A program made the position numbers and the translations under genes. A stretch of DNA of 64,000 nucleotides from Candidatus Methylomirabilota bacterium. Its GTDB lineage: Bacteria; Methylomirabilota; Methylomirabilia; Rokubacteriales; CSP1-6. The notes under the pieces were generated by a model. It made no database searches. It saw nothing but the letters and a program-made list of their open reading frames with translations, and was not told the DNA's origin. This document shows positions 1,367 through 60,016 of the stretch, piece by piece (position 1 is the stretch's first letter; every line of letters starts with the position of its first letter). The DNA lies in the NCBI GenBank assembly GCA_035708525.1, contig DASSSH010000026.1, positions 478 to 64,477 of the forward strand, written 5' to 3'.

Positions 1367-1956
1367 CCGCCCTCGAGGAGCTCGCCGCCCTGCTCGCAGA
1401 GCTCGAGCGGGCGCGCACATCCATCATGGCCCTGGCGCGTGGCAACTGCGCGCAGGAGCCCTGGAGGCTCTATCCGGGCGAATACGGGATCTTCGACCGC
1501 AAGACGCATAGCCAGTTCTACTACCACTCGCACGAAGGTGCCCGGCACGAGGCCGGCCACTTTCACACTGTCCGCCTCTTCACCGATCGCTCGGTGCATC
1601 TGGTGGCCATCTCCATGGCCGAGACCGGCTGGCCGCAGGCGCTGTTCACCGTCAACGGTTGGGCCATCGGTGACGCCTGGGAACCACCGGAGACGCTCAA
1701 GCAATACATTCGCCGATTCCACATCGGGCCGGGCCGAGGGCCCGCGCCACTGGTCCGGTTCATCAACCTGATGTTTGAGGCCTTCACCCTCGAAATGGAG
1801 CAGCTTCAGGACGACAAGGAGCGTGTGCTGCGGGCTTACTGCGCCGCCCATCCGGGGAAGGATCCCCTCCAAGACTGGTCGCTGGAGATCCTGAGCCGGG
1901 TCGAGATCGACATGAAGGCCCGTCTCGCCGGGCCGGCAGAAGTGGTCAGGCCTTGA
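1363..1956 (+). CDS. hypothetical protein with a His-rich motif (YYHSHEGARHEAGHFH), possibly metal-binding
   Basis: The GTG start overlaps the upstream stop (GTGA at 1363-1366). Third-position GC is coding-like. The protein sits between the DUF3179 gene and the TlpA-like gene, with overlapping junctions on both sides. Confidence 0.65.
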   Translation: MTALEELAALLAELERARTSIMALARGNCAQEPWRLYPGEYGIFDRKTHSQFYYHSHEGARHEAGHFHTVRLFTDRSVHLVAISMAETGWPQALFTVNGWAIGDAWEPPETLKQYIRRFHIGPGRGPAPLVRFINLMFEAFTLEMEQLQDDKERVLRAYCAAHPGKDPLQDWSLEILSRVEIDMKARLAGPAEVVRP

Positions 1957-2516
1957 TCCGCGCACGGATCCTCGCCGTGCTCGTCGGGGTGGTCGCGCTC
2001 GGCGGGGTCTTGCAAGTGGCCGCCGTGGGCCCGGATCCGACGCTCGGGGCGGATCTCTGGCGGGTCGCAGGCATCGCGCGGGCCGGTCGCCAGGTCGCCG
2101 CGCCGTCGTTCCAGCTGCAGGATATCGCCGGGAACCGGGTCGAGCTGCGCCAGCTCCGCGGGCGAATCGTGCTGGTCTACTTCTGGGGCTCGTGGTGACC
2201 GCACTGCACGAGGGAGTTGCCCTCGGTGGATGGGCTGCACGAGAAGCTGGCGCGAGAAGGGCTCACCGTTCTCCTCGTGAACATCGGGGAGACCCGTGAG
2301 ACCGTGGTCCGGGCCCTGGCGTCGCGCCGCTACACAGCCCCCGTGTTCCTCGACTCGAACGGCAAGACCAGCGAGTCCTATCGCGTCGCAGGCACCCCCA
2401 CGGTGTTCATCATCGGTCGGGACGGGATGATCCTCGGGAGTGCCGTGGGCCCTGGCCCCTGGGCGGAACCGGCCGGGCGCGCGCTGCTCGAAGCGCTGCT
2501 CCGCGGTCGAACGTAA
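1953..2516 (+). CDS. TlpA/ResA-like thiol:disulfide oxidoreductase, selenocysteine-containing (UGA 2196-2198 read as Sec)
   Basis: ORFs 1953..2198 and 2217..2516 are in the same frame. The junction reads VLVYFWGSW-[TGA]-PHC-TRELPSV, the thioredoxin-fold WCxxC site. There is an N-terminal membrane anchor and a C-terminal AGTPTVFIIGRDG motif. The TTG start overlaps the upstream TGA (TTGA). Confidence 0.8.
2204..2229 (+). promoter_or_regulatory. putative bacterial SECIS hairpin for UGA 2196
   Basis: CGAGGG-AGUUG-CCCUCG at 2209-2225. It can be extended by 4 pairs with a bulged A at 2208. The loop A lies 19 nt from the U of UGA. Confidence 0.6.
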
Positions 2517-2560
2517 GCAGAGGTCATGCCGATTCCGCCGGTCTCCTTGCACCGCGCGGT

Positions 2561-3514
2561 TCAGTCGCCGGCCGCGCGGAATCCTCGCCAGGCGAGCCGG
2601 TGCTTCCGGAAAAAGAACGCGAGCATGGCGACGGCGGATAGTAGATTACCGATCAGAATGGTCCACCAGGCCAACGCTTCCAGCAGCCACTCGGCCAGCG
2701 CCGCGACCAACCCGATGAAGAAGACCTCGAAGCAGCAGAAGAGCATGACGAAGGCGTAGAGCAGGCGCGGCTCGCGGTCGGCCAGCGCCAGCAGTCCTGC
2801 GGCGGCCCAGCCGAAGGCAACGAAGGCTGCGCCGTGCACCACGGTGTACTTGGCGACGGCCGGCACCGTGACGGTCAGGGCATTGACGTCCCGTAGTCCG
2901 TCGAAAAGCGCGGCGCCGAGCAAGGCCGGAGTGCGCAATGGCCGGCCAGCCGCCAAGTCGTAGAGCAGAAACCACACCGCCACCGTCACCGCGCCCAGCA
3001 GCCCGGCCATGAAGCCTTCCCTAGTCGCGCCCGTCCATGGGCCCAGCAGCGCGCGTCCGAGCGCGCGATGCCCGACGAAAAAGTACGCGAGCATCCCGGC
3101 GGCGGCGAGCAGATTGGCCGCCAAGATTGCCCACCAAGCCACTTCGGTCAGGACCGGGTGAGCCAGCCAGACCACGAGAGCGAGAGACAAGACCTCGAAG
3201 CACATGAGACCGATGAAGAGCACGAGCAGCCGGCTCGGGTGAGTTTGGGCTGAGGCGATGAGATACGCGATCAGCACCCCGATCATCGCGAAGACGACGC
3301 CGTGCAGCACCGTGTATTGGAGGACCAGGCCGGGCGACGTGGACACCGCCCCAGGGTCGGTCGCGCCCTGGAGCGCGGCAGCGCCTAGCACAGCGGGCGT
3401 GCGAAAGGGATGCCCGCGCGCCGCATCAAGGATCAAAAACCATACGGCGACGACTGCGGCGCCGATCATGCCGCCGATGACGCCTTCACGAACGAAGCGG
3501 TGTGAGAGCGCCAT
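2561..3514 (-). CDS. integral membrane protein with an internal duplication (two ~150-aa halves)
   Basis: ATG 3514 is preceded by an AGGAGG ribosome-binding site (RBS). Both halves share REG..G..GA..VAVWFL..D.A.G.P.RTPA.LGAA ... CFEV ... WW.IL..NLL.A..MLA.FF..HR. Confidence 0.75.
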   Translation of the reverse strand: MALSHRFVREGVIGGMIGAAVVAVWFLILDAARGHPFRTPAVLGAAALQGATDPGAVSTSPGLVLQYTVLHGVVFAMIGVLIAYLIASAQTHPSRLLVLFIGLMCFEVLSLALVVWLAHPVLTEVAWWAILAANLLAAAGMLAYFFVGHRALGRALLGPWTGATREGFMAGLLGAVTVAVWFLLYDLAAGRPLRTPALLGAALFDGLRDVNALTVTVPAVAKYTVVHGAAFVAFGWAAAGLLALADREPRLLYAFVMLFCCFEVFFIGLVAALAEWLLEALAWWTILIGNLLSAVAMLAFFFRKHRLAWRGFRAAGD

Positions 3515-3668
3515 TGAGCCTCCTGTGTTGGTGCCCAGGGCGATGTCGGATGGGACCGCTAACAAAACAGGAAACCGGGTGATCTACCTACTTATTCCTC
3601 TGAAAACCGAGCGCCGGCTGGGAATACGAGCGCCGCCAGGGGAGTTGTCCGGATGAGGAGGACGAGCC

Positions 3669-3788
3669 ATGAAGATCCTACCGTTGGTTGCCCTGTTCCT
3701 GGCTGTCGCGGCTCCCGTTTATGCTTTTCACGACAAGCCCCCGGACATCCAGGCCCCCCTCAGCGCGGACGATATCCAGGCTCCGTGA
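3669..3788 (+). CDS. small secreted peptide (39 aa), hypothetical
   Basis: A GAGGAGGA RBS lies about 7 nt upstream. The product is MKILPLVALFLAVAAPVYA-FHDKPPDIQAPLSADDIQAP, a signal peptide followed by a DIQAP repeat. It is too short for the ORF track. Confidence 0.3.
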   Translation: MKILPLVALFLAVAAPVYAFHDKPPDIQAPLSADDIQAP

Positions 3789-3851
3789 GGTCGAGTTGCC
3801 TTCGCACCGGATCTCCCGGGTGGCGTTTGTTCGCGTGCCCACGCGAATGTT

Positions 3852-4190
3852 TCAAGACGCGGAGCGGGCCAGATACGAGGTAAGCCAGTAGAGCGAGATG
3901 TAGACGATGACCATCGCGACGGCCACGGTGAGGAGCAGATGCCATTGGGCTTGCGCGCCGCGCAGACTGCAGGCGTTCCGGCGGCGCAGGATGGCCATCA
4001 CGCCTAGCACGGCCAAGATAAGGGCCGCGCCGCGGAAATACCACCCGTAGCCGTAGTAGAGAGTGTTGCCCAGGCTGATCGCGAAGGACGCCGAGGCGAG
4101 CCCAAGCAGGACCAACACGACGGGGCTCACGCAGCAGGAGATCCCGAGCAGGCCAGCCAGCAGGCCGAGCTTGAGACCCGTCTTGTCCAT
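3852..4190 (-). CDS. small membrane protein with a vicinal Cys-Cys in TM1 (MerT/MerF-like)
   Basis: MDKTGLKLGLLAGLLGISCCVSPVVLVLLG followed by further TM helices. The ATG overlaps the DUF547 stop (TGATG at 4188-4192). Confidence 0.6.
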   Translation of the reverse strand: MDKTGLKLGLLAGLLGISCCVSPVVLVLLGLASASFAISLGNTLYYGYGWYFRGAALILAVLGVMAILRRRNACSLRGAQAQWHLLLTVAVAMVIVYISLYWLTSYLARSAS

Positions 4191-4870
4191 CAGCGCAATC
4201 CCGCGGAATGGCTCGCCGATCGCTCCGGCAGCTGCCAGTCGTACTCCCGCCAGGTGACGCGGTCGAGCCCGCCTGCGAGGACCGTCCGCCTGACCGGACC
4301 GTCCTCGAGGTGGTCGGCGAGGAAGCCCACGAGCCCGCCTGGCCACTGGGCGAAGTCGGCGGCGAACCATTGGAAGATGGGCGTGGCGACCAACCGCTCC
4401 TTGTCCAGCGTCACCTCCCGGGTCACGAAGCCCCGCGTCGCCGCGTCGAGCTGGTCGTGCACGTGGACGCTGTCGTAGTGCTGCAGGGGCGGGCACGATC
4501 GCGCGCCGCAGTCGATGGCGAAGTGGATCCGGGGATCAAGGTCCGATATCACGTGCGCCAGACGCGGGTCGTCAGGCGAGAACGGTGGCGCGCCCGAGAG
4601 CGGATTGGGCCGGTTGCCGCGGAGCACCCCATGCTCGATGTCGTTGGCCGAGAACTCCAGCCCGCCGATGCGAGCGCGAATACGGTCGAAGAAGTCCGGG
4701 ACCTCCCAGACCGTCTGCCGGATCCCGAGGGCTGCGAGGCCCCCGGTGACCAAATCATTGTAGGCGTTGATCCAGAACGCGAGCCGCTCCCCACGTGTCG
4801 CGAGGCCGGCGAGCGGCGGGGCGGAAAGGTCCCTCAGTACCACGGCAACCATTAAACCAAACCGCGACAT
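4190..4870 (-). CDS. DUF547 domain-containing protein
   Basis: Motifs ERLAFWINAYN, IEHGVLRGNRPNP and DPRIHFAIDCGARSCPPL are typical of DUF547. Confidence 0.8.
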   Translation of the reverse strand: MSRFGLMVAVVLRDLSAPPLAGLATRGERLAFWINAYNDLVTGGLAALGIRQTVWEVPDFFDRIRARIGGLEFSANDIEHGVLRGNRPNPLSGAPPFSPDDPRLAHVISDLDPRIHFAIDCGARSCPPLQHYDSVHVHDQLDAATRGFVTREVTLDKERLVATPIFQWFAADFAQWPGGLVGFLADHLEDGPVRRTVLAGGLDRVTWREYDWQLPERSASHSAGLR

Positions 4871-4949
4871 CGCCTATTCCCGGTGCTTGACGGGCAGGCC
4901 ACGGTTGATGCGGTGCCGGCACGGGCGTGCGAGACGGGCGATTTTCCTC

Positions 4950-4980
4950 TTGACCTTGCCCCAAGGGGCCGGGTTTAGGC
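4950..4980 (+). promoter_or_regulatory. MerR/CueR-type promoter-operator (TTGACC, 19-bp spacer with dyad, TTAGGC)
   Basis: CTTGACCTTGCCCCAAGGGGCCGGGTTTAGGCT closely resembles, from memory, the E. coli copA promoter CTTGACCTTCCCCTTGCTGGAAGGTTTAACCT. The dyad ACCTTGCCCC/GGGGCCGGGT matches at 8 of 10 positions. The -10 element ends 7 nt before ATG 4988, so the transcript may be leaderless. Confidence 0.55.
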
Positions 4981-4987
4981 TGCGGTC

Positions 4988-5410
4988 ATGGGACGAGATG
5001 GCCTGCTGATCGGTGAGGTGGCGAAGCAGAGCGGCGCAAGCCGGAAGGCGCTGCGGCTGTATGAGACCGCGGGTATCCTTCCCGCTCCCCGCCGCACCGG
5101 GGCGGGCTATCGCGTGTACGGAGCCGACACGCTGGCGCTCCTCTCGTTCGTCCGGCGGGCGCAGCGACTCGGCTTCTCCCTGGAGGAGATCAAGGAGATC
5201 GTCGCCATCCGGCGAGCGGGACGCGCTCCATGCCCTCACGTCCGTGAGCTTGTCCGACGGAAGACCGAGGAACTCGACCGGCGGCTCACGGACCTGATGG
5301 AGGTGCGTGCTGGCCTTCGAGCCCTGGTGAAGGGCTGGCGCTCTTCGGGGCAGGGCCGCGCGGCGGTCTGCCCGCACATCGAGCGCGGCACTGGTCAGAG
5401 GGGGAGGTGA
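4988..5410 (+). CDS. MerR family (heavy-metal/CueR-like) transcriptional regulator
   Basis: N-terminal HTH LIGEVAKQSGASRKALRLYETAGILP..R...GYR.Y, a coiled-coil dimerisation helix, and two CPH motifs (APCPHV, VCPHIE). Confidence 0.9.
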   Translation: MGRDGLLIGEVAKQSGASRKALRLYETAGILPAPRRTGAGYRVYGADTLALLSFVRRAQRLGFSLEEIKEIVAIRRAGRAPCPHVRELVRRKTEELDRRLTDLMEVRAGLRALVKGWRSSGQGRAAVCPHIERGTGQRGR

Positions 5411-5416
5411 GAAGTG

Positions 5417-5557
5417 ATGCCTTGGAAGAAGGGTGAGGTGTACAGGTGCCCTGACCCCAACTGCGGGTGTGAGGTCGCGGTGACGAGAGAGCCGAGGCCT
5501 GGGATGGGAGGCGATCGGGCACCGGCCTGCTGCTGCGGCAAGACCATGACGAAGTAG
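5417..5557 (+). CDS. small Cys-rich desulforedoxin-like metal-binding protein (46 aa)
   Basis: MPWKKGEVYRCPDPNCGCEVAVT...APACCCGKTMTK matches the Dx pattern VY.C..CG..V.V...CCG..M. A GGGGGAGG RBS is present. The gene is too short for the ORF track. Confidence 0.55.
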   Translation: MPWKKGEVYRCPDPNCGCEVAVTREPRPGMGGDRAPACCCGKTMTK

Positions 5558-5583
5558 AACGTCCAAACAAGGAGGGATAGAGG

Positions 5584-5754
5584 ATGGACAGCCTGAAGAT
5601 GTCGCTGTGCCCGGCGTGTACCGCGTGCCCTGAAGTCGAGATCGCCGGGGACGAGGTCAGGATCGGCGAAACCGGCAACCTTGCCGTGCTGAAGCGAGAC
5701 GAATGGAACGTGCTGGTAGACCTGATCCAGGCGGGCCAGCTGTCGAAGCTCTGA
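5584..5754 (+). CDS. small hypothetical protein with a CPACTACP motif (56 aa)
   Basis: An AAGGAGGG RBS lies 8 nt upstream. The product is MDSLKMSLCPACTACPEVEIAGDEVRIGETGNLAVLKRDEWNVLVDLIQAGQLSKL, with high third-position GC. Confidence 0.45.
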   Translation: MDSLKMSLCPACTACPEVEIAGDEVRIGETGNLAVLKRDEWNVLVDLIQAGQLSKL

Positions 5755-5985
5755 TCAGCACCGACCTCCAACGTCCCGCGCGGGTCACCGGTCGAAGAGG
5801 CCGGTGGCCCGCAGGTCGTTTCAGGCCTGGGGTTGGCCCATCGCGTAAAATGCCTTCACCGCGGCCGCGGCCCGGCGCAGAGGTGGCCAAGGCCAGGGCC
5901 TGTGGGAATAAGTCGCCGAGGAGCTGTGTTATGTGTGTTGGTGTACACGCCGGGCGGCCCCCGGAAGACGAGAAAGGAGCCGAGA

Positions 5986-6480
5986 ATGGCGAGAGCGGGA
6001 AATCGAATCCTCGACAGCGGCGAGGTGCTGCCGACAATCGCCATGGACACCGTTGCCCATGAGCGAATCAGCGCGCCAGAGTGCTTCGGAAGCGGCTGGG
6101 GGGTCTTCCTCATCTACCGCGCCCACTGGTGACCATACTGCAAGCAGCAGTTAGCTGCCTTCGAGCGTGCGCTGCCAAAACTCCAGGATGAAGGGATTAC
6201 CGTCGTAGGGGCGTCCACTGACGCGCTGGAAAAGGCCAAAGAGACAGTAAGAGAACACGCCCTCTCCTTCCCCATCGGCTATGGGCTCCCGCTCCGAGAG
6301 ACTGCGGCAACCCTAGGCACGTTCTACGAGGAGCGCCGAGGCATCTTGCAGTCTACCGGGTTCTTGATCAAGCCGGACAAGACGATCGCGGTCGCGCAGT
6401 ACAGCTCAGGACCCATCGGTCGCTTGGTCTGGCAGGACGTCCTCGGTCTGGTTCAGTTCTATAAGAAGCAGGCGAAATAG
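5986..6480 (+). CDS. peroxiredoxin-like (AhpC/TSA, PRX-like2-type) selenoprotein (UGA 6130-6132 read as Sec)
   Basis: A GAAAGGAG RBS precedes ATG 5986. The junction reads GVFLIYRAHW-[TGA]-PYC-KQQLAAFERALPKLQDEGITVVGASTD. The frame then stays open for 115 more codons to TAG 6478-6480 (…FPIGYGLP…SGPIGRL…). The downstream half is absent from the ORF track because it has no start codon. Confidence 0.8.
6142..6161 (+). promoter_or_regulatory. putative bacterial SECIS hairpin for UGA 6130
   Basis: AAGCAGC-AGUUA-GCUGC(C)UU, a stem with a bulged C. The loop A at 6149 lies 19 nt from the U of UGA. Confidence 0.55.
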
Positions 6481-6517
6481 CGATTCGGCCTACGAACCGG
6501 AGGCACGGGACCTGCTC

Positions 6518-6862
6518 ATGACCGCGATGGAGTGGGACTGCTGCCGGCACGGGGAAGAGACCCGTCTGACGTTTCAGTTCGCAGGTCGATCGGGGTCGGT
6601 TCGCAAATGCTGGTGGTGTGCGCTCGTGCACCCGCCCATGCTCTGGCGGTCCGTGAAGATTGGGCTTGTGGTAGGGAGCGTTCTGGCCGCCATCAACCAT
6701 GGCGGCGTCCTGGTGAGTGGCGAGCTGACCTCTGGCGTAGCCTGGAAGATCGGGTTGACCTATCTAGTGCCCTTTGTCGTGGCAACGTGGAGCGCCCTCG
6801 CGGCGAGTCGGATCTCCTCCGTCGCCGAGCCACGCGGTCGAGGCTCGGGTCCGGGCACATAA
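6518..6862 (+). CDS. NrtS-like (nitrate/nitrite transporter NrtS family) small membrane protein with a Cys-rich N-terminal extension
   Basis: The core LWRSVKIGLVVGSVLAAINHGGVLVSGELTSGVAWKIGLTYLVPFVVATWSAL matches NrtS-family sequences. The N-terminus carries CC..H and CWWC. Confidence 0.65.
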   Translation: MTAMEWDCCRHGEETRLTFQFAGRSGSVRKCWWCALVHPPMLWRSVKIGLVVGSVLAAINHGGVLVSGELTSGVAWKIGLTYLVPFVVATWSALAASRISSVAEPRGRGSGPGT

Positions 6863-6958
6863 GGTCATGACGGAGAAACCTCATCGAAGAGAGTTGACGC
6901 CGCCGTGACAAACCAGCGCAGTGTCCGTGGGAGGATGGAGCACAAAGGAGGTTTCGCG

Positions 6959-7441
6959 ATGCGACGCGGACTGATCGCGGCAGTCCTCTTGGGCCTGGGC
7001 GCGACCGTGAGCTGGGCCGCGACGCCGGCCCCGACCTTCATCTTGCCCCTCATCCAGGGCGGTAAGGTGTTCGATTCCAAAGCCGAGATCGGCAGGCGGG
7101 TCCTGGTTGTCCGCTTCCAGGCCTCCTGGTGACCCACCTGCGTGCAGGAGTCTCCTGCATTCGAGAAAGCCTACCGGAAGTACAAGACGCGTGGCGTCGA
7201 GTTCGTGGGCGTCCAGGTGCAGGACGAGGAGGCTGACGCCCGGCGGTTCCTCAAGGCTCACCAGGCGACCTATCCCGCAGGGCTCGATCCCGATCTGGCT
7301 ATCGCCAAGCGCTTCGGCTACACAGCGACGCCTCTGACCGTCATCATTGACCGTCAGGGCAACATCGCCGCGCGCCAGTTCGGGCCGGCGGACGACACCT
7401 GGATCGCCGCCCACCTCGCCCCGTTGCTCAAGCCCAAGTAG
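6959..7441 (+). CDS. TlpA-like periplasmic thiol:disulfide oxidoreductase, selenocysteine-containing (UGA 7130-7132 read as Sec)
   Basis: AAAGGAGG RBS, then the signal peptide MRRGLIAAVLLGLGATVSWA. The junction reads RVLVVRFQASW-[TGA]-PTC-VQESPAFEKAYRKYKTRGVEFVGVQVQD. ORFs 6905..7132 and 7142..7441 are in the same frame. Confidence 0.8.
7142..7160 (+). promoter_or_regulatory. putative bacterial SECIS hairpin for UGA 7130
   Basis: UGCAGG-AGUCU-CCUGCA at 7143-7159. The loop A at 7149 lies 19 nt from the U of UGA. Confidence 0.6.
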
Positions 7442-7513
7442 GGACTACGGCTTCAGCACGATCTTCATCGGGCGGTCGGTCGGTTCCAATTCGACCCCGC
7501 AACCAAGGCATCC

Positions 7514-7606: not shown

Positions 7607-8545
7607 TTATCCCGTGGAGTCTCGAATGGACGGCAGGACCTCGTGGGCGAAGCGCTCGATCTGCTCCAGCCGTTGTGGCCAGCGCGGCACCATGAATTGA
7701 AGCGCGATGTGCTCCACCCCGATCCTGCGATAGGCGGTGAGCGCCTTGACGAGCTGGGTCGAATCGCCGATCAATCGGTCCTCTTCCTGGGGCACGGGCT
7801 CCCGCGTGAGCTCGATGGGGAGACAACACGCCAGGCTGATCTGGCCGGGGTCTCTGCCTTGCTTGACCGCCCAGCTCCGCACGTTGTCGAACCGGGCGGC
7901 CAGCTCGCGCGGCGTGATCCGGACGAAGTAGGGAAACCACGCGTCTCCATACACGGCCGCCCGACGCTGGGCTCGCGCCCCTTCGCCGCCCACCCAGATC
8001 GGGATCCGGGGCCTCTGAAAGGGCTTCGGCGAAAAGCCGATCTCCTGAAAGCGGTAGTACCGGCCGTCGAACCGGGGCCGTTCTTCGGTCCAGACCCGGT
8101 TCACGACGTCGAGCTGTTCATCGGCGACGGCGCCACGGTCCGTGAACGGAGCCCCGAGCGCGCTGAACTCCTCGAGCATCCAGCCGACGCCCACCCCCAG
8201 GATCAAGCGCCCGAGTGAGAGGTGGTCGATCGTGGCGGCGATCTTGGCCCAGTAGAGAGGATGGCGATACGGCATGACCAGGACGCTCATCCCGAGCAGA
8301 ACCCGTCGCGTGCAGCCCGCCAGGAAGGCGAGACAGGTCAGCGCCTCCAGGAACGGAACATCAGGGGGAACGATGAAGCGCTGGTCCGCGCTGTACGGGT
8401 AGGGGGTCTTGATCTCCCACGGCGTGACGATCCGATCGGCGGCCCACACCGAGTCAAAGCCCAGGGCTTCGGCCCGATTCGCCGCCTCCGTGAGGACGCC
8501 GCTCGCGGCTCTGCCCGAGATCGGGAGAAAGACACCGACCTTCAT
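7607..8545 (-). CDS. LLM-class (luciferase-like) F420/flavin-dependent oxidoreductase
   Basis: MKVGVFLP..., LGFDSVWAADR, LGRLILGVGVGW, RPRIPIWVGG. Confidence 0.9.
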   Translation of the reverse strand: MKVGVFLPISGRAASGVLTEAANRAEALGFDSVWAADRIVTPWEIKTPYPYSADQRFIVPPDVPFLEALTCLAFLAGCTRRVLLGMSVLVMPYRHPLYWAKIAATIDHLSLGRLILGVGVGWMLEEFSALGAPFTDRGAVADEQLDVVNRVWTEERPRFDGRYYRFQEIGFSPKPFQRPRIPIWVGGEGARAQRRAAVYGDAWFPYFVRITPRELAARFDNVRSWAVKQGRDPGQISLACCLPIELTREPVPQEEDRLIGDSTQLVKALTAYRRIGVEHIALQFMVPRWPQRLEQIERFAHEVLPSIRDSTG

Positions 8546-8549
8546 TGGC

Positions 8550-9092
8550 CTAGACCGAGCTGACGCGGCGGGCGACGAACTCCACGTTGAGACGCCACGT
8601 GGCTCCACCATCGGCGGACACCTCACCCCGCCAGCGAAACGATTTCGGCGCCATCTCGGAGAAGCTCCATCGGATCAGACTCCCGTCGGGGCCGTTCCCT
8701 TCCTGGACGATGTCTTCACCCCGCTTGCGGCCGATCATCGTGAAGTACGTCTGCGATGCCGGATCCGTCCACTGGATGTGCCACGCGTCGATTCGTGGAT
8801 CGTAGACGCGCAACGTCGTGCCATAGTAGGCGCTGCTGGCCGCGGGATCCCCCTCGCGCTTTGCGCTGCGCGCCGGGACGATCCAGACATCCTGGATGGC
8901 GCGGCCTTCGAGCACCCATCCGAAGTGCCATTCGCCGGAGCTGCGACGCTTCGAGCCATCTTCCAGGTATCCGGTCACGTCGAGCTCCCAGGAGCCCACC
9001 AGCCAGCCGTAGAGGTCCATCTTGCCGGCGCGGTCTGCTGCCGGGCCGTTGGCGTGAAGAACGCCGAGAAATGGAGACGAGGGTGCGATCAT
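8550..9092 (-). CDS. hypothetical protein (DUF1579-like beta-barrel)
   Basis: AAGGAGG RBS. Motifs LVGSWELDVTGYLEDG...GEWHFGWVLEGRAIQDVW. The gene lies 4 nt upstream of the LLM gene. Confidence 0.7.
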   Translation of the reverse strand: MIAPSSPFLGVLHANGPAADRAGKMDLYGWLVGSWELDVTGYLEDGSKRRSSGEWHFGWVLEGRAIQDVWIVPARSAKREGDPAASSAYYGTTLRVYDPRIDAWHIQWTDPASQTYFTMIGRKRGEDIVQEGNGPDGSLIRWSFSEMAPKSFRWRGEVSADGGATWRLNVEFVARRVSSV

Positions 9093-13140: not shown

Positions 13141-14196
13141 ATGGGCGAGCGGCTGGGGGTGTCACACGTCTACGTCGGCGCCGCGAGGTTCACGGCTACG
13201 GCCGTCGGGGGGATCTTCCGGTGGGCCGTCGGTGACGAACGCTGGGAGCCGCTCGCGAAAGGCCTGCCCGAGCCGGCGAACGTCCAGGCGATCACCGTCC
13301 ACCCGGTAAATCCCGACCTCGTATACCTCGGCACTCAGGACGGCCCGTACCGCAGCGTGGACCGCGGCGAGCGCTGGGAGCGCCTCGACTTCCCCCGGGA
13401 GACCGAGGTCTGGTCGATTCTCGTCCATCCGAGCCGCCCGCGCACCCTCTATGCCGGCACGTCGCCCATCGGGGTCTACCGCAGCGAGGATGGCGGCGAC
13501 ACCTGGCGGCGCCTTCCGGCGCGGTCACCGGACCGCGTCCGGATGAGCTTCGCCTGCCGGGTGATGCGGCTCGCCGCCGATCCGGCGCGCCCGGACGAGC
13601 TCTACGCGACGCTCGAGGTCGGCGGCGTGATCCGCAGCCTGGACGGCGGCGAATCGTGGGAGGACATGAGCGCCGACCTCGTCGCGCTGGCCGAGCGGCC
13701 GCATCTCAAGAGCCGGATCCAGAGCGACACCGAGACGGAGGGCATGCTGGACGGCCACGCCCTCTGCGTCAGCGCTGCGGCGCCGGGCGTGGTGTTCCTC
13801 GCCGTGCGGATGGGGCTGTTCCGCAGCGCCGACCGCGGCGCCAGCTGGCAGGACATGGAGATCGGCCGGTTCTCCCCGCTGACCTACGCGCGGGACCTCC
13901 GGGTCTCGCCTCAGGATCCCCGCGTGCTGTACGGGTGCCTCAGCCCTGCGGCGCGCAGCGAGGACGGTTCGCTCTACCGCAGCCTGGACCTCGGCGAGAC
14001 GTGGACGCGCTTCGACCACGGCATCAAGGCCGAGAGCACCATGATGGCCGTCGCCTTGAATCATCGGGATGCGCGCCAGGTCCACTGCGTCAGCCGGACC
14101 GGCCAGGTGTTCAGCACCGAGGACGGCGGCGAGGCGTGGCGTAAGCGCCGGCTGCCCGCGGGCGTCCAGGACGTGTACGCCGTCGCGTGCGGATGA
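13141..14196 (+). CDS. BNR/Ycf48-like beta-propeller repeat protein
   Basis: Repeated S.D.G..W motifs (YRSVDRGERW, YRSEDGGDTW, IRSLDGGESW, FRSADRGASW, YRSLDLGETW, FSTEDGGEAW). Confidence 0.8.
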   Translation: MGERLGVSHVYVGAARFTATAVGGIFRWAVGDERWEPLAKGLPEPANVQAITVHPVNPDLVYLGTQDGPYRSVDRGERWERLDFPRETEVWSILVHPSRPRTLYAGTSPIGVYRSEDGGDTWRRLPARSPDRVRMSFACRVMRLAADPARPDELYATLEVGGVIRSLDGGESWEDMSADLVALAERPHLKSRIQSDTETEGMLDGHALCVSAAAPGVVFLAVRMGLFRSADRGASWQDMEIGRFSPLTYARDLRVSPQDPRVLYGCLSPAARSEDGSLYRSLDLGETWTRFDHGIKAESTMMAVALNHRDARQVHCVSRTGQVFSTEDGGEAWRKRRLPAGVQDVYAVACG

Positions 14197-14248
14197 CGGG
14201 ACGGTCGGGCTCGCGGGACGCTCGCCTCACCCGAAGGGAGGACTGTCC

Positions 14249-14866
14249 ATGATCTACGAGATCCGGACCTACACGCTGAAGCCCCGCAGCCTCGCCGAGG
14301 TGGAGAAGCGGTACGGTGAGGCCTACGAGTACCGGCGGAAGTACTCGCCGCTCGCCGCCTTCTGGCACACGGAGGTCGGCCCGCTCAACGAGATCATCCA
14401 CGTCTGGCCCTACACCGACCTCGCCGAGCGCGCCCGCATTCGCGCGGAGGCGGCCAAGGATCCGAACTGGCCGCCGAAGACCCGCGAGTTCATCGTCCAC
14501 CAGGAGGTGGAGATCGTGACGCCGTTCCCGTTCATCCCGGAGATCACGCCCGGCACGATGGGCCCGATCTTCGAGATCCGGTGCTACAGTCTCCGGCCCG
14601 GCTCGCTGCCGGAGGTGATGAAGCGGTGGGAGGGAAAGATCGCCGAGCGAACGAAGCTGTCGCCGGTCGTGCTGGCCGGCGGCGTGGAGTTCGGCCAGGC
14701 CAACCGGTTCATCCACATCTGGGCGTACAAGAGCATGGACGAGCGGCTGGCCATCCGGAACCAGGCGCGGGCGGCCGGCGTGTGGCCGCCGCCGGGCGGC
14801 GGCGACGAGCTGCTGGCGCAGACGAACAAGATCGTGATGCCCGCCGCCTTCTCGCCGCTGCAGTAG
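14249..14866 (+). CDS. NIPSNAP family protein (two NIPSNAP repeats)
   Basis: GAAGGGAGGA RBS. MIYEIRTYTLKP and a second repeat IFEIRCYSLRPG. IHVWPY / IHIWAY. Confidence 0.85.
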   Translation: MIYEIRTYTLKPRSLAEVEKRYGEAYEYRRKYSPLAAFWHTEVGPLNEIIHVWPYTDLAERARIRAEAAKDPNWPPKTREFIVHQEVEIVTPFPFIPEITPGTMGPIFEIRCYSLRPGSLPEVMKRWEGKIAERTKLSPVVLAGGVEFGQANRFIHIWAYKSMDERLAIRNQARAAGVWPPPGGGDELLAQTNKIVMPAAFSPLQ

Positions 14867-14911
14867 CGCCTCGCGCGCCCCCGTGTGGGGTGGCGGGCTC
14901 GAGGGGCGGGA

Positions 14912-15742
14912 TCAGCCGATGAAGAGGCCGCCGTTCGGCGAGAGCCACTGGCCGGTGTAGAAGGCGCCGTCGTCCGAGGCGAGGAACAGCGCTGTGGCCG
15001 CCACGTCGCGGGGCTCGCCCCAGCGGCCGAGGGGCGTGCGCGCCAGGACGGCGGCGCGCATGAGGGGTGACACCGCCTCGGTCATGGGCGTGTCGATGAA
15101 GCCCGGGCAGATCGCGTTCACGCGGATGCCGCGCGAGCCCACCTCGCGCGCGACCGAGCGGGTGAAGGCGAGAATGCCCCCCTTGGCGGCGCTGTAGTGC
15201 GGGACGCTGTCGAGCCCGGCGAGAGCGGCCACGCTCGACATGTTGATGATGACGCCGCGCTGCGCCCGGCGCATGAGTCGCAGGGCCTCGCGGGTGCAGA
15301 AGAACGTGCCGTTCAAGTGTACCCCGATCATCCGATGCCACGCCTCGTCGGTCATGTTCTCGGTGATGTCCCAGTGGGTCTGGATCCCCTGGCCCGACAT
15401 CAGCTCGCCCAGCCGCGCCTCAGCCTTCCGGCTGATCTCCTCGTGCTCCCCGGCGGCGGTCACCGCGATCCCCGCGTTGTTGACCAGGATGTCGAGCCTG
15501 CCGAACTCGCGCTCGACCTCGGCGAACATCGCCCGGACCTGCCGGCTGTCGGACACATCCGCCCGGATCGCGCGGGCCTGGCACGCGCGCGGGCCCATCG
15601 CCTCCAGCGTCTCCTGCGCGGCCTCGAGCCGGAGATCGTTCACGACGACGCGCGCGCCCTCCGCGGCGAAGAGCAGGGCGATGGCCCGGCCGATTCCCGA
15701 TCCTGCGCCCGTGACGAGGGCCACCCGGTCCAGCAGCTTCAT
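14912..15742 (-). CDS. SDR family oxidoreductase (FabG-like)
   Basis: VALVTGAGSGIGRA, NNAG, and YSAAK catalytic motifs. Confidence 0.9.
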   Translation of the reverse strand: MKLLDRVALVTGAGSGIGRAIALLFAAEGARVVVNDLRLEAAQETLEAMGPRACQARAIRADVSDSRQVRAMFAEVEREFGRLDILVNNAGIAVTAAGEHEEISRKAEARLGELMSGQGIQTHWDITENMTDEAWHRMIGVHLNGTFFCTREALRLMRRAQRGVIINMSSVAALAGLDSVPHYSAAKGGILAFTRSVAREVGSRGIRVNAICPGFIDTPMTEAVSPLMRAAVLARTPLGRWGEPRDVAATALFLASDDGAFYTGQWLSPNGGLFIG

Positions 15743-15745: not shown

Positions 15746-16891
15746 CTATCGCCCGATTCCGGCGGTCTCGTCCACGTGGGCATCCTCCCGGAAATGCGGC
15801 ATGACCTCCCGCGAGAAGAGCTCCATCATCTCCAGCGTCTTCTCGTGACTGCCGCCGTTGAGGCCCGAGCACACGATCCCGGCCTGAAGCTCATCGGAGA
15901 AGACCGTGAGCTTGTCGCGCACCGTGGCGGGGCTGCCCACGATGATGTACCCCCCGGCCTCGAGATCGTCGAAGGTCAGCTCGGTGGGTGGCTTCGGCCG
16001 GTTGGCGAGCACGCGCCTCAGCGACGTCTCCGTCACGTAGCCCGGAGGCAGGTAAAACGGCGTTCGCATGCGGAGCCCCACGTTGTAGACCCAGAGGACG
16101 TTCTGCCGCGCGATCTCATAAGCCTTGGCGTCGTTCTCGGCCACCACGATGGGCAGGTTCACGGTGAGCTGGTAGCGGCTGGCCGTGTAGCCGGAACGCT
16201 CGCAGGCTTCCCGGTACTCGCCGTAGATCTGGGCGATGCGCTTGATGGGCGTGAAGACCATCAGATAGGGAAAGCGGCGCTGGGCCGCCCACTCGACCGT
16301 CTCGGTGCTGCCCTGGGACGGGCACCAGACGGGCGGATGCGGCTTCTGGAGCGGCCGGGGCCAGGGATTGACGTAGGGGTAGCGGAAGAAGCGGCCGTCA
16401 AAGGGGAACGGGCCTTCCTCGGTCCAGGCGCGGATGATCAGCTCGGCGGCCTCGTAGAAGCGCTCGCGCGAGTGAGTCGGGTTGACGGCCAGCGAGAAGT
16501 ACTCGGGGCCGATGCCGCGCACGAAGCCCGAGATCACGCGCCCCCCGGAGACCACATCCAGCATGGCGATCTCCTCGGCGACGCGGAGGGGATTCTCCCG
16601 GAGCGGGAGGCCATTGCCGAGGATGGCGATCTTCGCGCGGCTCGTCCTTCGCACCAGCATGGCCGCCATTACGTTGGGGCTCGGCATGGTGCCGTAGCAG
16701 TTCTGATGGTGCTCGTTGACGCACAGGCCATCCCAGCCGAGCCGCTCGGCGTATTCCAGCTGATCGAGGTACTGGTGGTACAGCCCGTGGCCGATCGCGG
16801 GGTCGTAATGGCGATTGGACAGCGTCACCCAGGACGACGGCTCCTCATGGTCCATCAGGTAGGGCATCAGATGGAAGTAGTAGAACTTCAC
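15746..16891 (-). CDS. LLM-class flavin-dependent oxidoreductase
   Basis: Luciferase-like motifs (GWDGLCVNEHH, PPVWCPSQGS). The ATG overlaps the upstream stop (ATGA). Confidence 0.9.
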   Translation of the reverse strand: MKFYYFHLMPYLMDHEEPSSWVTLSNRHYDPAIGHGLYHQYLDQLEYAERLGWDGLCVNEHHQNCYGTMPSPNVMAAMLVRRTSRAKIAILGNGLPLRENPLRVAEEIAMLDVVSGGRVISGFVRGIGPEYFSLAVNPTHSRERFYEAAELIIRAWTEEGPFPFDGRFFRYPYVNPWPRPLQKPHPPVWCPSQGSTETVEWAAQRRFPYLMVFTPIKRIAQIYGEYREACERSGYTASRYQLTVNLPIVVAENDAKAYEIARQNVLWVYNVGLRMRTPFYLPPGYVTETSLRRVLANRPKPPTELTFDDLEAGGYIIVGSPATVRDKLTVFSDELQAGIVCSGLNGGSHEKTLEMMELFSREVMPHFREDAHVDETAGIGR

Positions 16892-27260: not shown

Positions 27261-27291
27261 GAGACGCCGGACCCTCCGCCGTGTTCTCCAC

Positions 27292-46120: not shown

Positions 46121-46693
46121 CTACTGGTCGCGGCCCATCGTGTAGAACTCGCGGTTCGGCCGCATGGCCGCCAGATTCGCCATGCGGTTGGACAGGTTGA
46201 AGAAGGCCGCGACCGCGCCGATGTCCCAGATGTCCGACTCGCTGAACCCGTGCCGCCGGAGCGGCTCGAAATCAGCCTCCTCGATGCCGGCCGAGTCGAG
46301 CGTGACCTTCACCGCGAAATCCAGCATGGCCCGCTGGCGCGGCGTGAGGTCCGCGTGGCGGTAGTTTGCGGTGATCTGGTCGGCGATCAGGGGGTGCTTC
46401 GACAGGACACGGAGCGCCGCTCCGTGAGCGACCGTTCAGTAGGCGCAGGAATTGGCGGCGCTGACAGCGACCACGATCATCTCGCGCTCGGCACGCGACA
46501 GCCCCGACTCCCCCCGCATGAGGACCTCATAGTAGTGGAAGAAGGCGCGGAAATGATCGGGCTTCCACGCGTACGCGAGAAAGACATTGGGGGTGAAGCC
46601 GGATTTCTTGGCGATCGCCTCGATGGCCTGCTTGAGGTCGGCGGGCAGGTCGGCGGGGTCGGCCACGGGGAAGCGGCTGATCGGCTCGGTCAT
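46121..46693 (-). CDS. AhpD-like peroxidase-related enzyme, selenocysteine-containing (UGA at 46438-46436 read as Sec)
   Basis: ORFs 46436..46786 and 46121..46327 are in the same frame. The junction reads EREMIVVAVSAANSCAY-[TGA]-TVAHGAAL, the CxxCxxxH AhpD core motif with TGA at the second Cys. ATG 46693 overlaps the upstream stop (ATGA). Confidence 0.82.
46408..46426 (-). promoter_or_regulatory. putative bacterial SECIS hairpin for UGA 46438
   Basis: CACGGAGC-GGC-GCUCCGUG, an 8-bp stem (or 7 bp with pentaloop CGGCG), starting 9 nt after the UGA. Confidence 0.6.
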
Positions 46694-51470: not shown

Positions 51471-51635
51471 TCAGGCCGACCGCCGCCGGCGCGAGCCCTT
51501 TCCCTGCTTCACGTGCTTGAAGAACTCGATCTGCCGGAGCCGGCGCTCGGCCTCGGCGCGCGTGTCGTAGGACCCGAAGCTGCGCCCGGTCTTCTCCGAG
51601 AGAACCACGTACTTCCCGCCGCGCTTTCTGATCAT
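51471..51635 (-). CDS. small basic hypothetical protein (54 aa)
   Basis: [40 protein letters not shown]. The ATG overlaps the msrA stop (ATGA at 51632-51635). Confidence 0.45.
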
Positions 51636-52279
51636 GTCGTCACACCCGTCGGGCAGCGGAGGCCGGTGCCGCCGATGCCGCAATAGCCCCAGGGGTTCTT
51701 GGCCAGGTACTGCTGGTGGTAATCCTCGGCGTAGTGGAACTCCGGCGCCTCCCTGATCTCGGTGGTAATGGCGCCGAAGCCGCCATCGCTCAGCACGCGC
51801 TGGAAGGCGCGCCGCGAAGCCTCGGCGGCCTGGCGCTGGGCGTCGCCGTAGCAATAGATGGCCGAGCGGTATTGGGTGCCGGTGTCGTTGCCCTGGCGCA
51901 TGCCCTGGGTCGGGTCGTGGCTTTCCCAGAACACGCGCAGCAGGTCCTCGTAGGCGACCTTGTCCGGATCGAAGACGACCCGGACGCCCTCGGCGTGGCC
52001 CGTGAGGCCGCTGCACACTTCCTCGTAGGTGGGATTGGGCGTGAGTCCGCCCGCATATCCCACCGCGGTCGAGTAGACGCCGGGCAGCTCCCAGAATTTC
52101 CGCTCCGCTCCCCAGAAACAGCCCATCCCGAACAAGGCCAGCGCCGTTCCCTCAGGGAAGGGTGGCTCGAGGCGGGCGCCGCTCACGAAATGAGCGGCCG
52201 GGACCCGAACGCGCTCGGCCCGTCCGGGGAGCGCGTCGGCCGGCGAGGGGAGCGCGGCCTTCTTCGAGCGGAGCCACAT
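51632..52279 (-). CDS. msrA: peptide-methionine (S)-S-oxide reductase
   Basis: SPADALPGR...GMGCFWGAE...[23 protein letters not shown] chose the start [20 protein letters not shown] by analogy with E. coli [19 protein letters not shown]. Confidence 0.9.
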
Positions 52280-52328
52280 GGGGGGCACCTCCACCGGCGA
52301 GTATACCAGGCCCATCGAGCCGCGTGGG

Positions 52329-53331: not shown

Positions 53332-53365
53332 CCCGATCCGATCCGACGGAGGTTTGGGGGACCCC

Positions 53366-54304: not shown

Positions 54305-54345
54305 GGCCGCTTCCTTGCTCTTCCAGCGCCAGTTCGTTCAGAGCT

Positions 54346-55458: not shown

Positions 55459-55719
55459 CTGGGCTCTCCTTGTCGGTGAGCGGAACGGTGCATCCGCCGG
55501 CGTCAGTCTAGCGTGCCGGCCCTCACTCTGCCACCGCAGCGGTTGAGCCCTGGACGCCCGCGGTCACTGCGGGGCGAGAAGCGGCACCCGGGTGGGGCGC
55601 CGCTGCCCCGCGAGGGCGAGCCTCAGGCTCCTGCGCCCTTTGTTTTCGGGGCGTTGAGAAGGTACCAGTCCCTGGCACGCTTCCTGCTCCGTTCGTTATC
55701 ACGTGACCGGAGACCGAGC

Positions 55720-57648: not shown

Positions 57649-57664
57649 CGCCGCGGCCCGCGGC

Positions 57665-59296
57665 TCAGCGCTGATACTTGGTCGGAGTCCGGCGGGGCAG
57701 GAAGAAGACGGGGCGCGACATCCGGCCCACCGGCACCTCGATCAGCACCGGCCGGTCCATCTGGACGGCCTCCGAAACGAGACGGCCCACCTCAGTGGGT
57801 TCTTTTGCGCGCAGGCCACGCACCCCGAAGGCCTCGGCCAGCTTCATGAAGTCGGGGTTGGAGAGCTCGGCGCCGTAGGCGCCGCCCCACGATTCGTCCA
57901 GGTCCCGCGCGACGTTGCCGTAGGCGTTGTCGTTGAAGACCACGCTGACCACGTTGATCTTGTACCGGACGGCGGTGGCCAGCTCCTGGGCGTTGTACAT
58001 GAAGCCGCCGTCTCCCGAGACGGCGACGACCGGCCGATCCGGCTGGGCGACCTTGGCTCCCAGCGCCACCGGGAAGGCGTAGCCGAGGTTGCCGGAGTAG
58101 GACGAGCTCAGATAGGTCCGCGGCGCGTACACGGGCCAGAACGGGCGCGAGTAGTAGCCGATCTGGTTCATCCCGGCGACCAGGATGGCGTCCTCCGGCG
58201 TCCCGGCGCGCAGGCTCTTGAGGATCGAGGCCTGAGGCTCCTGGGTGGCGAGGGCGGCCACCTGACCCCGCAGCGCCTGGAACTCCGCCTTGCGCGAGGG
58301 CTTCGGCGGCCCGGCGGCGCGCAGTCGCTCCAGCAGCGCTTCGAGCGTTGCCCGCCCATCGCCGACCAGTCCCACCGCCACCGGATGATTGCGGCCGATC
58401 TCTTCCGGGTCCACGTCGAGCTGGATGATGCGCTGGTCGCGCTGGAAGGAGACGAGCGCCAGTCGTGAGCCCACGGCGAGCACCACGTCGGCCGCGTGCA
58501 CGTGGGCGCGCAGCGGTGATTCGCGCCAGAAGGCCGCGCCCAGGGCGAGATCGCTGTGGTCGCTCACGGCGCCCTTGCCCTCCGCGGAGGTGACGACGCC
58601 CGCCTGGAGGTGCTCGGCGACCGCGGCCAGGGCATCGTGGCAGCCCGAGAGGTGGACGCCGCCGCCGGCGTAGATGACGGGCGCCGCGGCGGCGAGCAGC
58701 AGCTCGGCGGCGCGGTCGAGGTCGGCGGCCGGCGCGGGGGACCGGGTGACGGTCGGGGGCTCGATGAGCTCGACCTCGCCTTCGTCCTCCATGGTCTCCG
58801 GCGGCATCTCGATCTCGACGGGGCGGGGCCGGCCGGTCCGGAGCTGCGTGACGGCCTCGCTCACGGCCGCGGGGATCTCGCCGATCTCGAGGACGCGCCG
58901 GCGCCACTTGGTCACGGGAGCGATGGCGTCGAGCTGGTCGTTGACCTCGTGGAGGAGCCCGATGTTCTTGCCGATGCTGGCCCGCGGGATCTGGCCCGCA
59001 ATCATCAGGACCGGGGAGGAGGCGGCGTAGGCCGTGCTCAGCCCGGACATGGCGTTGAGGAGCCCGGGGCCCGGGACCACGAGCGCGGTGCCGAAGTCTC
59101 CGCCGGCGCGCGCATAGCCGTCGGCCATGAAGCTCGTGGCCTGCTCGTGGCGTGTCGCGATGAAGCGGATCCGCGGCTCGTCGCGCAGCGCCGCCATCAC
59201 GCCGTAGAGCTGGACGCCGGGCAACCCGAAGATCACCCGCACGCCGGCGGCGAACAGGGAGCGGACGAGCGCCTCCCCGCCGGTCATCACCGCCAT
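57665..59296 (-). CDS. thiamine pyrophosphate-dependent enzyme (acetolactate synthase large-subunit-like)
   Basis: [53 protein letters not shown]. Confidence 0.9.
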
Positions 59297-59452
59297 CGTG
59301 TAAGCTCCCCTCGCAGGGCCTCGTGCGTGCCAGGCATCACGACGGGGCAGTATACCAGACGGGCGCTCGCTTGACGCCCCGCCGCCTCGCTGCAACAATC
59401 CGGGCGACGCCGAGGCGACGCGAACGACCCATTCGAGCCGCGGAGGGGAGCC

Positions 59453-60016
59453 ATGCCCATCACACGGATGCTGGAGCTCGACGAGCTGGAGCCGGCCCTG
59501 CGCGAGGCGGCGGAGAAGTGGGGCGCCCAGGGCGGCAACGTGAACATGCACCGGGTATTCGGCCAGATGCCCGACTTCTTCAAGAAGTTCGTCGAGTTCT
59601 ACGGGCCGCTGGTCAACCACGGGCGCGTCCCCGTGCGCGTCAAGGAGCTGGCGCGCATCCGTGTGGCCAACCTCAACGAGTGCCACTACTGACAGAAGAC
59701 CCGCTACGCCTTGGCAAGGCGGGTGACGAGGGAAGCCGAGCTCGAGCGGGTGGACGACTTCGAGGCCGCTGAGTTCAGCCCGGCGGAGAAGGCCGTGCTG
59801 CGCTTCACCGAGGCTTTCTACCGCGACCACAAGACGGTTCCCGATTCGGTGTGGAGCGACTTGCGCCGGCACTACAGCGAGCCCGAGATCATCGAGCTCG
59901 CCTGGACGATCGCGGCCTACATCATGCTGGGCAAGCTGATCTACGCCTTCCGCATTCCGTACGGTGACGAGGGCAGCGGGCCCCGAGGCGGAGCCATCCC
60001 GGAGGAACGCCCATGA
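59453..60016 (+). CDS. carboxymuconolactone decarboxylase/AhpD-like family selenoprotein (UGA 59690-59692 read as Sec)
   Basis: ORFs 59453..59692 and 59711..60016 are in the same frame. The junction reads VKELARIRVANLNECHY-[TGA]-QKTRYAL, i.e. CxxC with TGA at the second Cys. The downstream FSPAEKAVLRFTEAF...EIIELAWTIA is CMD-like. The stop overlaps the next gene's start (ATGA). Confidence 0.78.
59707..59721 (+). promoter_or_regulatory. putative bacterial SECIS hairpin for UGA 59690
   Basis: CGCCUU-GGC-AAGGCG, starting 14 nt after the UGA. An alternative outer pairing is CCCGC/GCGGG (59700-59723). Confidence 0.5.

Follow-up and report, generated by a model that had tools for sequence, protein, structure and literature searches.

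Five genes in a 64-kb stretch of DNA from a Candidatus Methylomirabilota bacterium (contig DASSSH010000026.1, positions 478 to 64,477; hereafter the window) very probably encode selenoproteins, in which an in-frame UGA, followed by a selenocysteine insertion sequence (SECIS) hairpin, is genuinely recoded as selenocysteine (Sec, U). A six-frame scan of the window, which sought TGA codons with open, coding-like sequence on both sides and a cysteine (Cys) nearby, and from which stop-to-stop frames were then extracted, revealed a single in-frame TGA in exactly five genes (positions 2196, 6130, 7130, 46436 on the minus strand, and 59690; genes 1 to 5, Table 1). The window is 68% GC, and long spurious open reading frames (ORFs) arise in every frame. 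A stricter scan, requiring an open frame with a GC content at third codon positions (GC3) of 0.78 or more on either side and a hairpin 6 bp or longer, recovered four of the five genes and no credible new candidate; the one missed was gene 2, whose GC3 of ~0.73 lies under the cut-off. Sec recoding is supported by protein domains that continue across the TGA, by Cys at the TGA column in homologues and structures, by SECIS-type hairpins with covariation and synonymous constraint, and by conservation of the TGA in independent assemblies. An earlier, sequence-only reading of the window had proposed five unrelated loci, each with one in-frame TGA at the catalytic Cys of a CxxC-type motif. The number of loci and the placement of the codon held up; the loci are not unrelated, since they fall into two fold classes, three thioredoxin-fold and two AhpD/CMD-fold, and genes 1, 2, and 3 lie within 5.3 kb of one another.

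Pfam and NCBIfam models, searched with U replaced by C, were continuous over the TGA in all five genes; genes 1, 2, and 3 were matched by AhpC-TSA and Redoxin, and genes 4 and 5 by CMD. In every case, the TGA occupies a redox Cys position, giving UxxC in the three thioredoxin-fold proteins and CxxU in the two AhpD/CMD-fold proteins. For gene 4, which scores above the TIGR01926 cut-off and carries C-A-Y-U-T-V-A-H (CxxU, C-xxx-H motif), the U column is Cys in 17 of 17 aligned homologues (N-x-C-x-Y-C-[TV]-V-x-H-G), and the match to PDB entry 2prr (E=9e-73) likewise has Cys at this column. The C-H-Y-U of gene 5 aligns with the C-x-Y-C of the CMD structures 2ijc and 3c1l. The WCxxC of ResA and TlpA PDB structures was aligned on the motif of gene 3, with Cys at the U position, and Cys-form relatives of this gene read RFQASWC[KR][VT]C. 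Gene 2 scored 65.5 bits against AhpC-TSA (gathering score, 26), with the alignment running across the TGA and a W-U-P-Y-C motif, as in the Prx-like (PF00578, UxxC) selenoproteins; its U column aligns with the CxxC of ResA among distant structures only. In gene 1, the UPHC motif lies inside the AhpC-TSA, Redoxin, and Thioredoxin domain matches, and ResA itself has WCPHC, a pairing with Cys that stands at the level of the domain rather than of a residue-level motif alignment.

The published criteria for bacterial SECIS (bSECIS) elements are a loop of 3-9 nt, a stem of 4-16 bp, a G in the first two loop positions (usually then G or U), a spacing of 16-37 nt, and a minimum free energy (MFE) of -7.5 kcal/mol or lower (PMC13188914). 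All five hairpins fell within these limits, those of genes 2 and 5 narrowly. When the U of the UGA is numbered +1, the apical loop starts at +20 to +24 in each of the five, with a G in its first two positions. Loop position and sequence are very uniform across the window genes. In its loosest form, such a hairpin was found at 14.7% of all positions and after 16% of all TGA trinucleotides in the background, and it followed 5/5 in-frame TGAs compared with 4/24 genuine TGA stops (one-sided Fisher p = 0.001). The MFE of the whole 63-nt segment after each TGA was uninformative at 68% GC (random mean, -21.5 kcal/mol), and the positional hairpin test was used instead.

Genes 1, 2, and 3, together with their orthologues, share one helix register, with pairs formed between positions 14-19 and 25-30. 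In this register 96.3% of the cells were paired, and both sides change in four of the six pairs. The covariation score was 0.713, compared with 0.222 in shuffles (none of 500 reached the observed value), and controls with slid partners stayed at or below 0.204. A compensatory change in the related locus L013 converts the gene 1 hairpin to ggaggg/ccctcc, the gene 2 hairpin is one A-U pair longer in L013 and L014, and the loop of the gene 3 hairpin is GGC in orthologues and GUC in the window. Synonymous constraint was clearest in gene 4: among 52 distinct close orthologues, the third-position entropy of the hairpin codons (+4 to +10) was at most 0.14 bit, compared with ~0.9-1.4 in the nearest flanking degenerate codons. 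The Cys-form orthologue L001 (78% identical) encodes the same TVAHGAALR peptide, using GGC and CGC codons, which disrupt the stem, in place of the rarer GGA and CGT of the window. The gene 5 hairpin is nucleotide-invariant in L003-L009, and the adjacent codons vary.

These features are consistent with a mechanism in which each mRNA would carry one UGA at a redox-active position, namely the N-terminal Cys position of UxxC in the three thioredoxin-fold thiol:disulfide oxidoreductases and the C-terminal position of CxxU in the two AhpD/CMD-fold proteins. The stem-loop that follows (a stem of 5-8 bp and a loop of 3-5 nt starting (A)GU or GG, 16-20 nt downstream) would act as the bacterial SECIS and recruit SelB-GTP-Sec-tRNA(Sec), so that the ribosome would insert Sec and not terminate. 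A UGA without a hairpin would be an ordinary stop. Gene 5 contains both kinds, the predicted Sec codon at 59690-59692, which has a hairpin, and the stop at 60014-60016, 324 nt later, which has none.

Orthologues that are 75-94% identical and come from many independent samples and assemblers share the TGA column, and for all five genes the hairpin is kept along with it. For gene 4, the metagenome contigs counted in Table 1 were obtained by a direct scan for N-x-C-x-Y-TGA-T-V-x-H-G-A, and all are in frame. The related locus L010, which is 87-88% identical in nucleotide sequence to window positions 1-6856, has the order DUF3179, DUF6969, a split 81+99 aa gene, DUF547, MerR, and a split 48+109 aa gene; read-through of the split genes in L010, L013, and L014 revealed that the TGAs of genes 1 and 2 are conserved. 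The L010 orthologue of gene 1 (84% amino acid identity) has an ATG at the start position and keeps the TGA. The top representative match to gene 3 is a 99-aa fragment, whose contigs (two NCBI assemblies and one Logan assembly) are called as 57+99 aa with the TGA conserved. Homologues of gene 2 include more than 110 clusters of 109-aa C-terminal fragments, one of them from an NCBI 'Candidatus Rokubacteria' MAG (metagenome-assembled genome). For gene 5, each of the 15 database homologues is a C-terminal fragment beginning 2-10 residues past the U. The JGI contigs L003-L005 are syntenic at this gene, with NECHY*Q, an identical hairpin, and a 264-aa enoyl-CoA hydratase gene overlapping by 4 nt. 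The TGA and hairpin of gene 5 are also kept in four GTDB Methylomirabilota/Rokubacteria MAGs; its near relatives are all TGA forms, with no Cys form seen among them, and those that bear an organism name all belong to Methylomirabilota/Rokubacteria. Overall, the named relatives are all Methylomirabilota/Rokuibacteriota MAGs; amino acid identity is 81-88% for gene 5, and nucleotide identity reaches 88% elsewhere.

The same codons could in principle be inactivating mutations, or sequencing or assembly errors, which would make the genes pseudogenes or artefacts. At each site a single nucleotide separates TGA from a Cys codon (TGC or TGT), and for gene 4 the nearest database homologues of full length, which are 78-81% identical, have Cys. 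Mutation or error would, however, have to produce an identical TGA column across independently sampled and assembled orthologues, strike the redox Cys position five times out of five, and leave coding-type GC3 and full domain alignments on both flanks; nor is synonymous constraint on hairpin codons expected of a pseudogene. The probability of this explanation is negligible, in agreement with the sequence-only reading, which had judged five coincident pseudogenes implausible. Division of the genes into two true parts, or a programmed truncation that ends the N-terminal peptide at the TGA, with separate translation of the C-terminal part, is what the calls of public pipelines (81+99, 48+109, 57+99, and 91+111 aa) would suggest at face value. 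Such a division would break one thioredoxin or AhpD fold apart at the active-site motif. The 'starts' called for the C-terminal parts are arbitrary ATG, GTG, or TTG codons inside the frame, which lie 2-10 residues past the TGA and differ between orthologues, and the Cys-form relatives are single polypeptides. We regard it as extremely unlikely. The splitting or truncation by standard gene callers that had been foreseen from the sequence was indeed found in the public calls for orthologues of genes 1, 2, 3, and 5.

Another explanation is that TGA is reassigned, or is read as Trp, Gly, or Cys without dependence on a SECIS (cf. genetic codes 4 and 25). It could draw on P0136, a 'full-length' relative of gene 2 with Trp at the U column (HWWPYC), although a short contig called under code 4 or 25 would yield exactly this residue, which probably arose in that way. 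The other 'full-length' relative, P0137, has Ser (PWSPYC) and may be a real variant; no Cys form was seen among the near relatives of gene 2. Reassignment is very unlikely when set against the use of TGA elsewhere in the window, where it is the commonest true stop, closing 24 of the 39 family-supported genes where their domains are expected to end. As had been claimed, it serves as the normal stop at 1364-1366 and 5408-5410 and in the GTGA, TTGA, and ATGA overlaps, which are present at 1363-1366, 1953-1956, 46690-46693 (minus strand), and 60013-60016, and the earlier exclusion of a global reassignment stands. In-frame TGA occurs solely at redox Cys positions and solely with a hairpin after it, and Trp at the nucleophile position of CxxC would inactivate the enzyme. 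The TGA at 5408, which ends the MerR-family gene upstream of gene 2, was considered as a further Sec codon and kept as an ordinary stop: the MerR models match to residue 113 of 140, the hairpin after it is weak and G-U-rich, and the frame stays open for only 48 codons (that frame was not searched against the family libraries).

Several observations weigh against Sec recoding. No tRNA, and so no tRNA-Sec, and no Rfam family was found in the window, nor was a SelA, SelB, or SelD-like protein among the ~50 window ORFs tested, which agrees with the absence of selA, selB, selC, and selD from the window noted earlier. The minimal hairpin of gene 2, with 5 bp, is barely within the energy threshold, and RNAfold favours an alternative long-range pairing over it in the window sequence. 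The core hairpin of gene 5 alone reaches -6.2 kcal/mol and passes only when the lower stem is included. The covariation lies mostly between paralogous families aligned by register, and not within one orthologous set. Apart from these points, ARAGORN found no tRNA-Sec on eight related loci. Three genes directly upstream of gene 4 (475, 628, and 362 aa), suspected by size to be selA, selB, and selD, were identified by NCBIfam as malic enzyme, aldehyde:ferredoxin oxidoreductase, and an MtaA/URO-D-like methyltransferase. With Sec recoding retained as the very probable explanation, we infer from the sequence that Sec is actually inserted at these positions, that selA, selB, selC, and selD are located elsewhere in the genome, and that the proteins have a likely role in envelope and cytoplasmic thiol/peroxide defence, which would be partly under the control of extracytoplasmic function (ECF) sigma or MerR-type regulators.

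Table 1. Coordinates of the five predicted selenoprotein genes, their putative Sec codons and candidate bSECIS hairpins, and adjoining genes (positions in the window; L numbers denote related loci)
Feature	Position	Strand	Details
Gene 1, predicted TlpA/ResA-like thioredoxin-fold selenoprotein, 187 aa	1953..2516	+	FWGSW-U-PHC; AhpC-TSA 86 bits, Redoxin 75 bits over the TGA
Gene 1, putative Sec-UGA	2196..2198	+	conserved in L010, L014, L013
Gene 1, candidate bSECIS hairpin cgaggg-AGUUG-ccctcg	2209..2225	+	16 nt after UGA; -9.1 kcal/mol
Context of gene 1, DUF3179 gene	89..1366	+	Cys form, VTY-C-PLC; coupled to gene 1, with the DUF6969 gene, by overlapping stop/start codons
Context of gene 1, DUF6969 gene	1363..1956	+	coupled as above
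Gene 2, predicted AhpC/TSA-type 'Prx-like thiol:disulfide oxidoreductase' selenoprotein, 164 aa	5986..6480	+	RAHW-U-PYC
Gene 2, putative Sec-UGA	6130..6132	+	conserved in L010-L014
Gene 2, candidate bSECIS hairpin gcagc-AGUUA-gcugc	6144..6158	+	-7.8 kcal/mol
Context of gene 2, MerR-family regulator upstream	4988..5410	+	arrangement conserved in L010
Gene 3, predicted TlpA/ResA-like selenoprotein, 160 aa	6959..7441	+	QASW-U-PTC; Pfam Redoxin 87 bits
Gene 3, putative Sec-UGA	7130..7132	+	TGA kept in orthologues L107-L109
Gene 3, candidate bSECIS hairpin gugcagga-GUC-uccugcau	7142..7160	+	-10.4 kcal/mol
Gene 4, predicted AhpD-like 'peroxidase-related enzyme' selenoprotein, 190 aa	46121..46693	-	NSCAY-U-TVAH; TIGR01926 213.7 bits vs cut-off 81.8
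Gene 4, putative Sec-UGA	46436..46438	-	92 metagenome contigs with the same in-frame TGA
Gene 4, candidate bSECIS hairpin cacggagc-GGC-gcuccgug	46408..46426	-	-12.5 kcal/mol
Gene 5, predicted divergent CMD/AhpD-fold selenoprotein, 187 aa	59453..60016	+	NECHY-U-QK; Pfam CMD 36.2 bits vs cut-off 23
Gene 5, putative Sec-UGA	59690..59692	+	TGA kept in L003-L009
Gene 5, candidate bSECIS hairpin, core cgccuu-GGC-aaggcg	59707..59721	+	20 nt after UGA; -8.1 kcal/mol with lower stem

The five genes fit selenoprotein families that are already known, in a phylum already reported as exceptionally selenoprotein-rich. A 2026 review includes among such families AhpD-like (TIGR01926, CxxU), CMD-like (PF02627, CxxU), and Prx-like thiol:disulfide oxidoreductase (PF00578, UxxC) proteins, as well as thiol:disulfide interchange and thiol-disulfide isomerase-like (UxxC) and DUF3179 (UxxC/T) proteins, and points out that Prx-like and AhpD-like selenoprotein genes cluster in operons (PMC13188914). 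As listed there, the AhpD-like family was first predicted from the selenoproteome of the Sargasso Sea (Zhang, Fomenko and Gladyshev 2005), with Kryukov and Gladyshev 2004 given for the Prx-like family; the consensus bSECIS model of Zhang and Gladyshev 2005 is summarised in its section 5. A Methylomirabilota MAG with 63 predicted selenoprotein genes is given as the new bacterial maximum (PMC13188914, citing Deng et al. 2026), and Sec-type [NiFeSe] hydrogenases have been found in Methylomirabilota (PMC13582414, 2026). The selenoprotein-rich proteome proposed in the earlier reading would be in keeping with this lineage, and these publications support the presence of Sec machinery at the level of the lineage.

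Gene 4 resembles the AhpD-like family in its C-x-x-U-x-x-x-H, with U at the second Cys, in its 60-80% identity to Cys forms, and in its match to 2prr. Nothing substantive distinguishes it from that family; it is an orthologue from the Methylomirabilota clade that has a strictly conserved SECIS of its own, with a GGC loop, and a start coupled to an MtaA/URO-D-like methyltransferase gene. Gene 5 resembles the CMD-like and distant AhpD selenoproteins (PF02627, CxxU) and NF053654 (YciW-related (seleno)protein) in passing the CMD threshold and in placing C-H-Y-U on CxYC. It differs in having Arg in place of the His usual four residues after the second Cys and in its coupling to an enoyl-CoA hydratase gene. 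It scored 53.7 bits against NF053654 (cut-off, 310) and 42 against TIGR01926 (cut-off, 81.8), far below both cut-offs, and it was filed only under the generic CMD fold. Gene 2 shares the AhpC-TSA domain and W-U-P-x-C with the Prx-like selenoproteins, and differs in that its near relatives lack a Cys form and that a MerR-type regulator is adjacent. Genes 1 and 3 share the Redoxin/AhpC-TSA fold, W-U-P-x-C, and N-termini that look like an anchor or signal by eye with the TlpA-ResA-like isomerase selenoproteins (PF13098, cd02966, UxxC). They are members of the fold only, with 90 and 71 bits where the NCBIfam cut-off for the ResA subfamily is 170 and with scores below the TlpA and DsbE equivalog cut-offs as well, and are therefore not those specific enzymes; gene 1 also differs in lying in an ECF-sigma/anti-sigma/DUF3179/DUF6969 operon.

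The SECIS of Escherichia coli fdhF has a loop G-U at +23/+24. The window hairpins resemble fdhF-type elements in lying directly 3′ of the UGA inside the ORF, in having a small loop with an early G followed by U or G, and in their spacing of 16-20 nt and MFE of -7.5 kcal/mol or lower. They differ in that the loop G-U is at +21/+22 and no bulged U is evident.

Gene 1 starts with a TTG that shares bases with the TGA stop of the DUF6969 gene upstream (TTGA), and its N-terminus looks like a membrane anchor or signal by eye. The gene order ECF sigma-70, zf-HC2 anti-sigma, DUF3179, DUF6969, TlpA-like selenoprotein is conserved at L010 4017-7641, L014 11181-14814, and L107 6407-8300. The window (1-2516) begins inside this neighbourhood, and the sigma and anti-sigma genes would sit just upstream of position 1. 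No description of this ECF-sigma/anti-sigma/DUF3179/DUF6969/TlpA-like neighbourhood was found in the two papers mentioning DUF3179 together with selenoproteins. The DUF3179 proteins themselves form a Cys/Sec pair, VTY-C-PLC in the window and VTW-TGA-PLC in L013 (Rokubacteria MAG, 14021-15025), where the gene is publicly split into 109+217 aa.

Gene 2 is probably cytoplasmic, as no N-terminal signal sequence is evident, while gene 3 is probably exported, its N-terminus being signal-peptide-like by eye. A ribosome-binding site, AAAGGAGG, lies upstream of gene 3. In the closest relatives (L010 10735-12695; L011; L012), the gene 2 orthologue adjoins merR, merB (organomercurial lyase), and merF; in the window it is gene 3, rather than mer genes, that comes after gene 2, and a MerR-family regulator lies upstream of gene 2 in both layouts. 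Further genes with an in-frame TGA occur in the relatives, encoding TlpA-like (TTT*PKC), CMD (CEY*[IT]VAHS), and OsmC-like (LAF*LMTQ) proteins; their sites are L107 194-736 and 4322-5032, and L014 6942-7466 and 7463-8263, all on the minus strand. Sec genes thus appear to cluster in the relatives, because these additional TGA genes adjoin orthologues of genes 1-3.

The ATG of gene 4 and the TGA stop of the MtaA/URO-D-like gene upstream overlap as ATGA. At the end of gene 5, the TGA stop and the ATG of the enoyl-CoA hydratase gene likewise overlap as ATGA, a coupling conserved in L003-L007. Gene 5 seems to overlap a 735-aa ORF on the minus strand, but the overlap is spurious: the TPP-enzyme (thiamine pyrophosphate) domains of this ORF start at residue 196, which places its true start below 59300.

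Elsewhere in the window, MsrA (51632-52315, minus strand) is present in the Cys form (GMGCFWG); MsrA is a selenoprotein in some bacteria. There are three luciferase-like monooxygenase genes (7607-8626, 15746-16891, and 35505-36344, all on the minus strand), along with genes for a P450, two enoyl-CoA hydratases, an aldehyde:ferredoxin oxidoreductase, and an MtaA/CmuA-like methyltransferase. Three consecutive large ORFs (427, 384, and 386 aa) at 26106-30213 on the minus strand have coding-like GC3 and no Pfam match.

Current understanding is unchanged by these findings, since the families, the mechanism, and the selenoprotein richness of the phylum have been published, and what is new is additional members. 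The local density is high, with five predicted Sec genes per 64 kb, and gene 5 diverges from the curated models. Were the same density to hold beyond the window, the selenoproteome would be larger than the published maximum of 63 genes; the density cannot be extrapolated to the whole genome, because three of the five genes are clustered. A bolder proposal, which we consider rather unlikely, is that the first 7.5 kb represent a Methylomirabilota-specific, rearranging 'selenoprotein redox island', in which nearly every CxxC-type oxidoreductase has been converted to Sec and which carries an obligate selenium requirement. Such an island may comprise the ECF-sigma/anti-sigma/DUF3179/DUF6969/TlpA-like operon, the MerR-linked Prx-like genes, and the CMD and OsmC genes. 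If this were true, the clades of genes 2 and 5, with no surviving Cys counterpart among near relatives, would make selenium obligate for envelope, peroxide, or metal-stress defence in this phylum.

The window also provides a clean, controlled case of context-dependent UGA decoding. The loops of its conserved hairpins (AGUUR, GKC, and GGC, at +20 to +24) give SECIS patterns specific to the lineage, with which Sec-aware annotation could be improved. In public gene calls for Methylomirabilota/Rokubacteria, such redox enzymes are systematically split through their active sites, and as a consequence thiol-redox capacity and selenium dependence are under-reported in soil and groundwater metagenomes.

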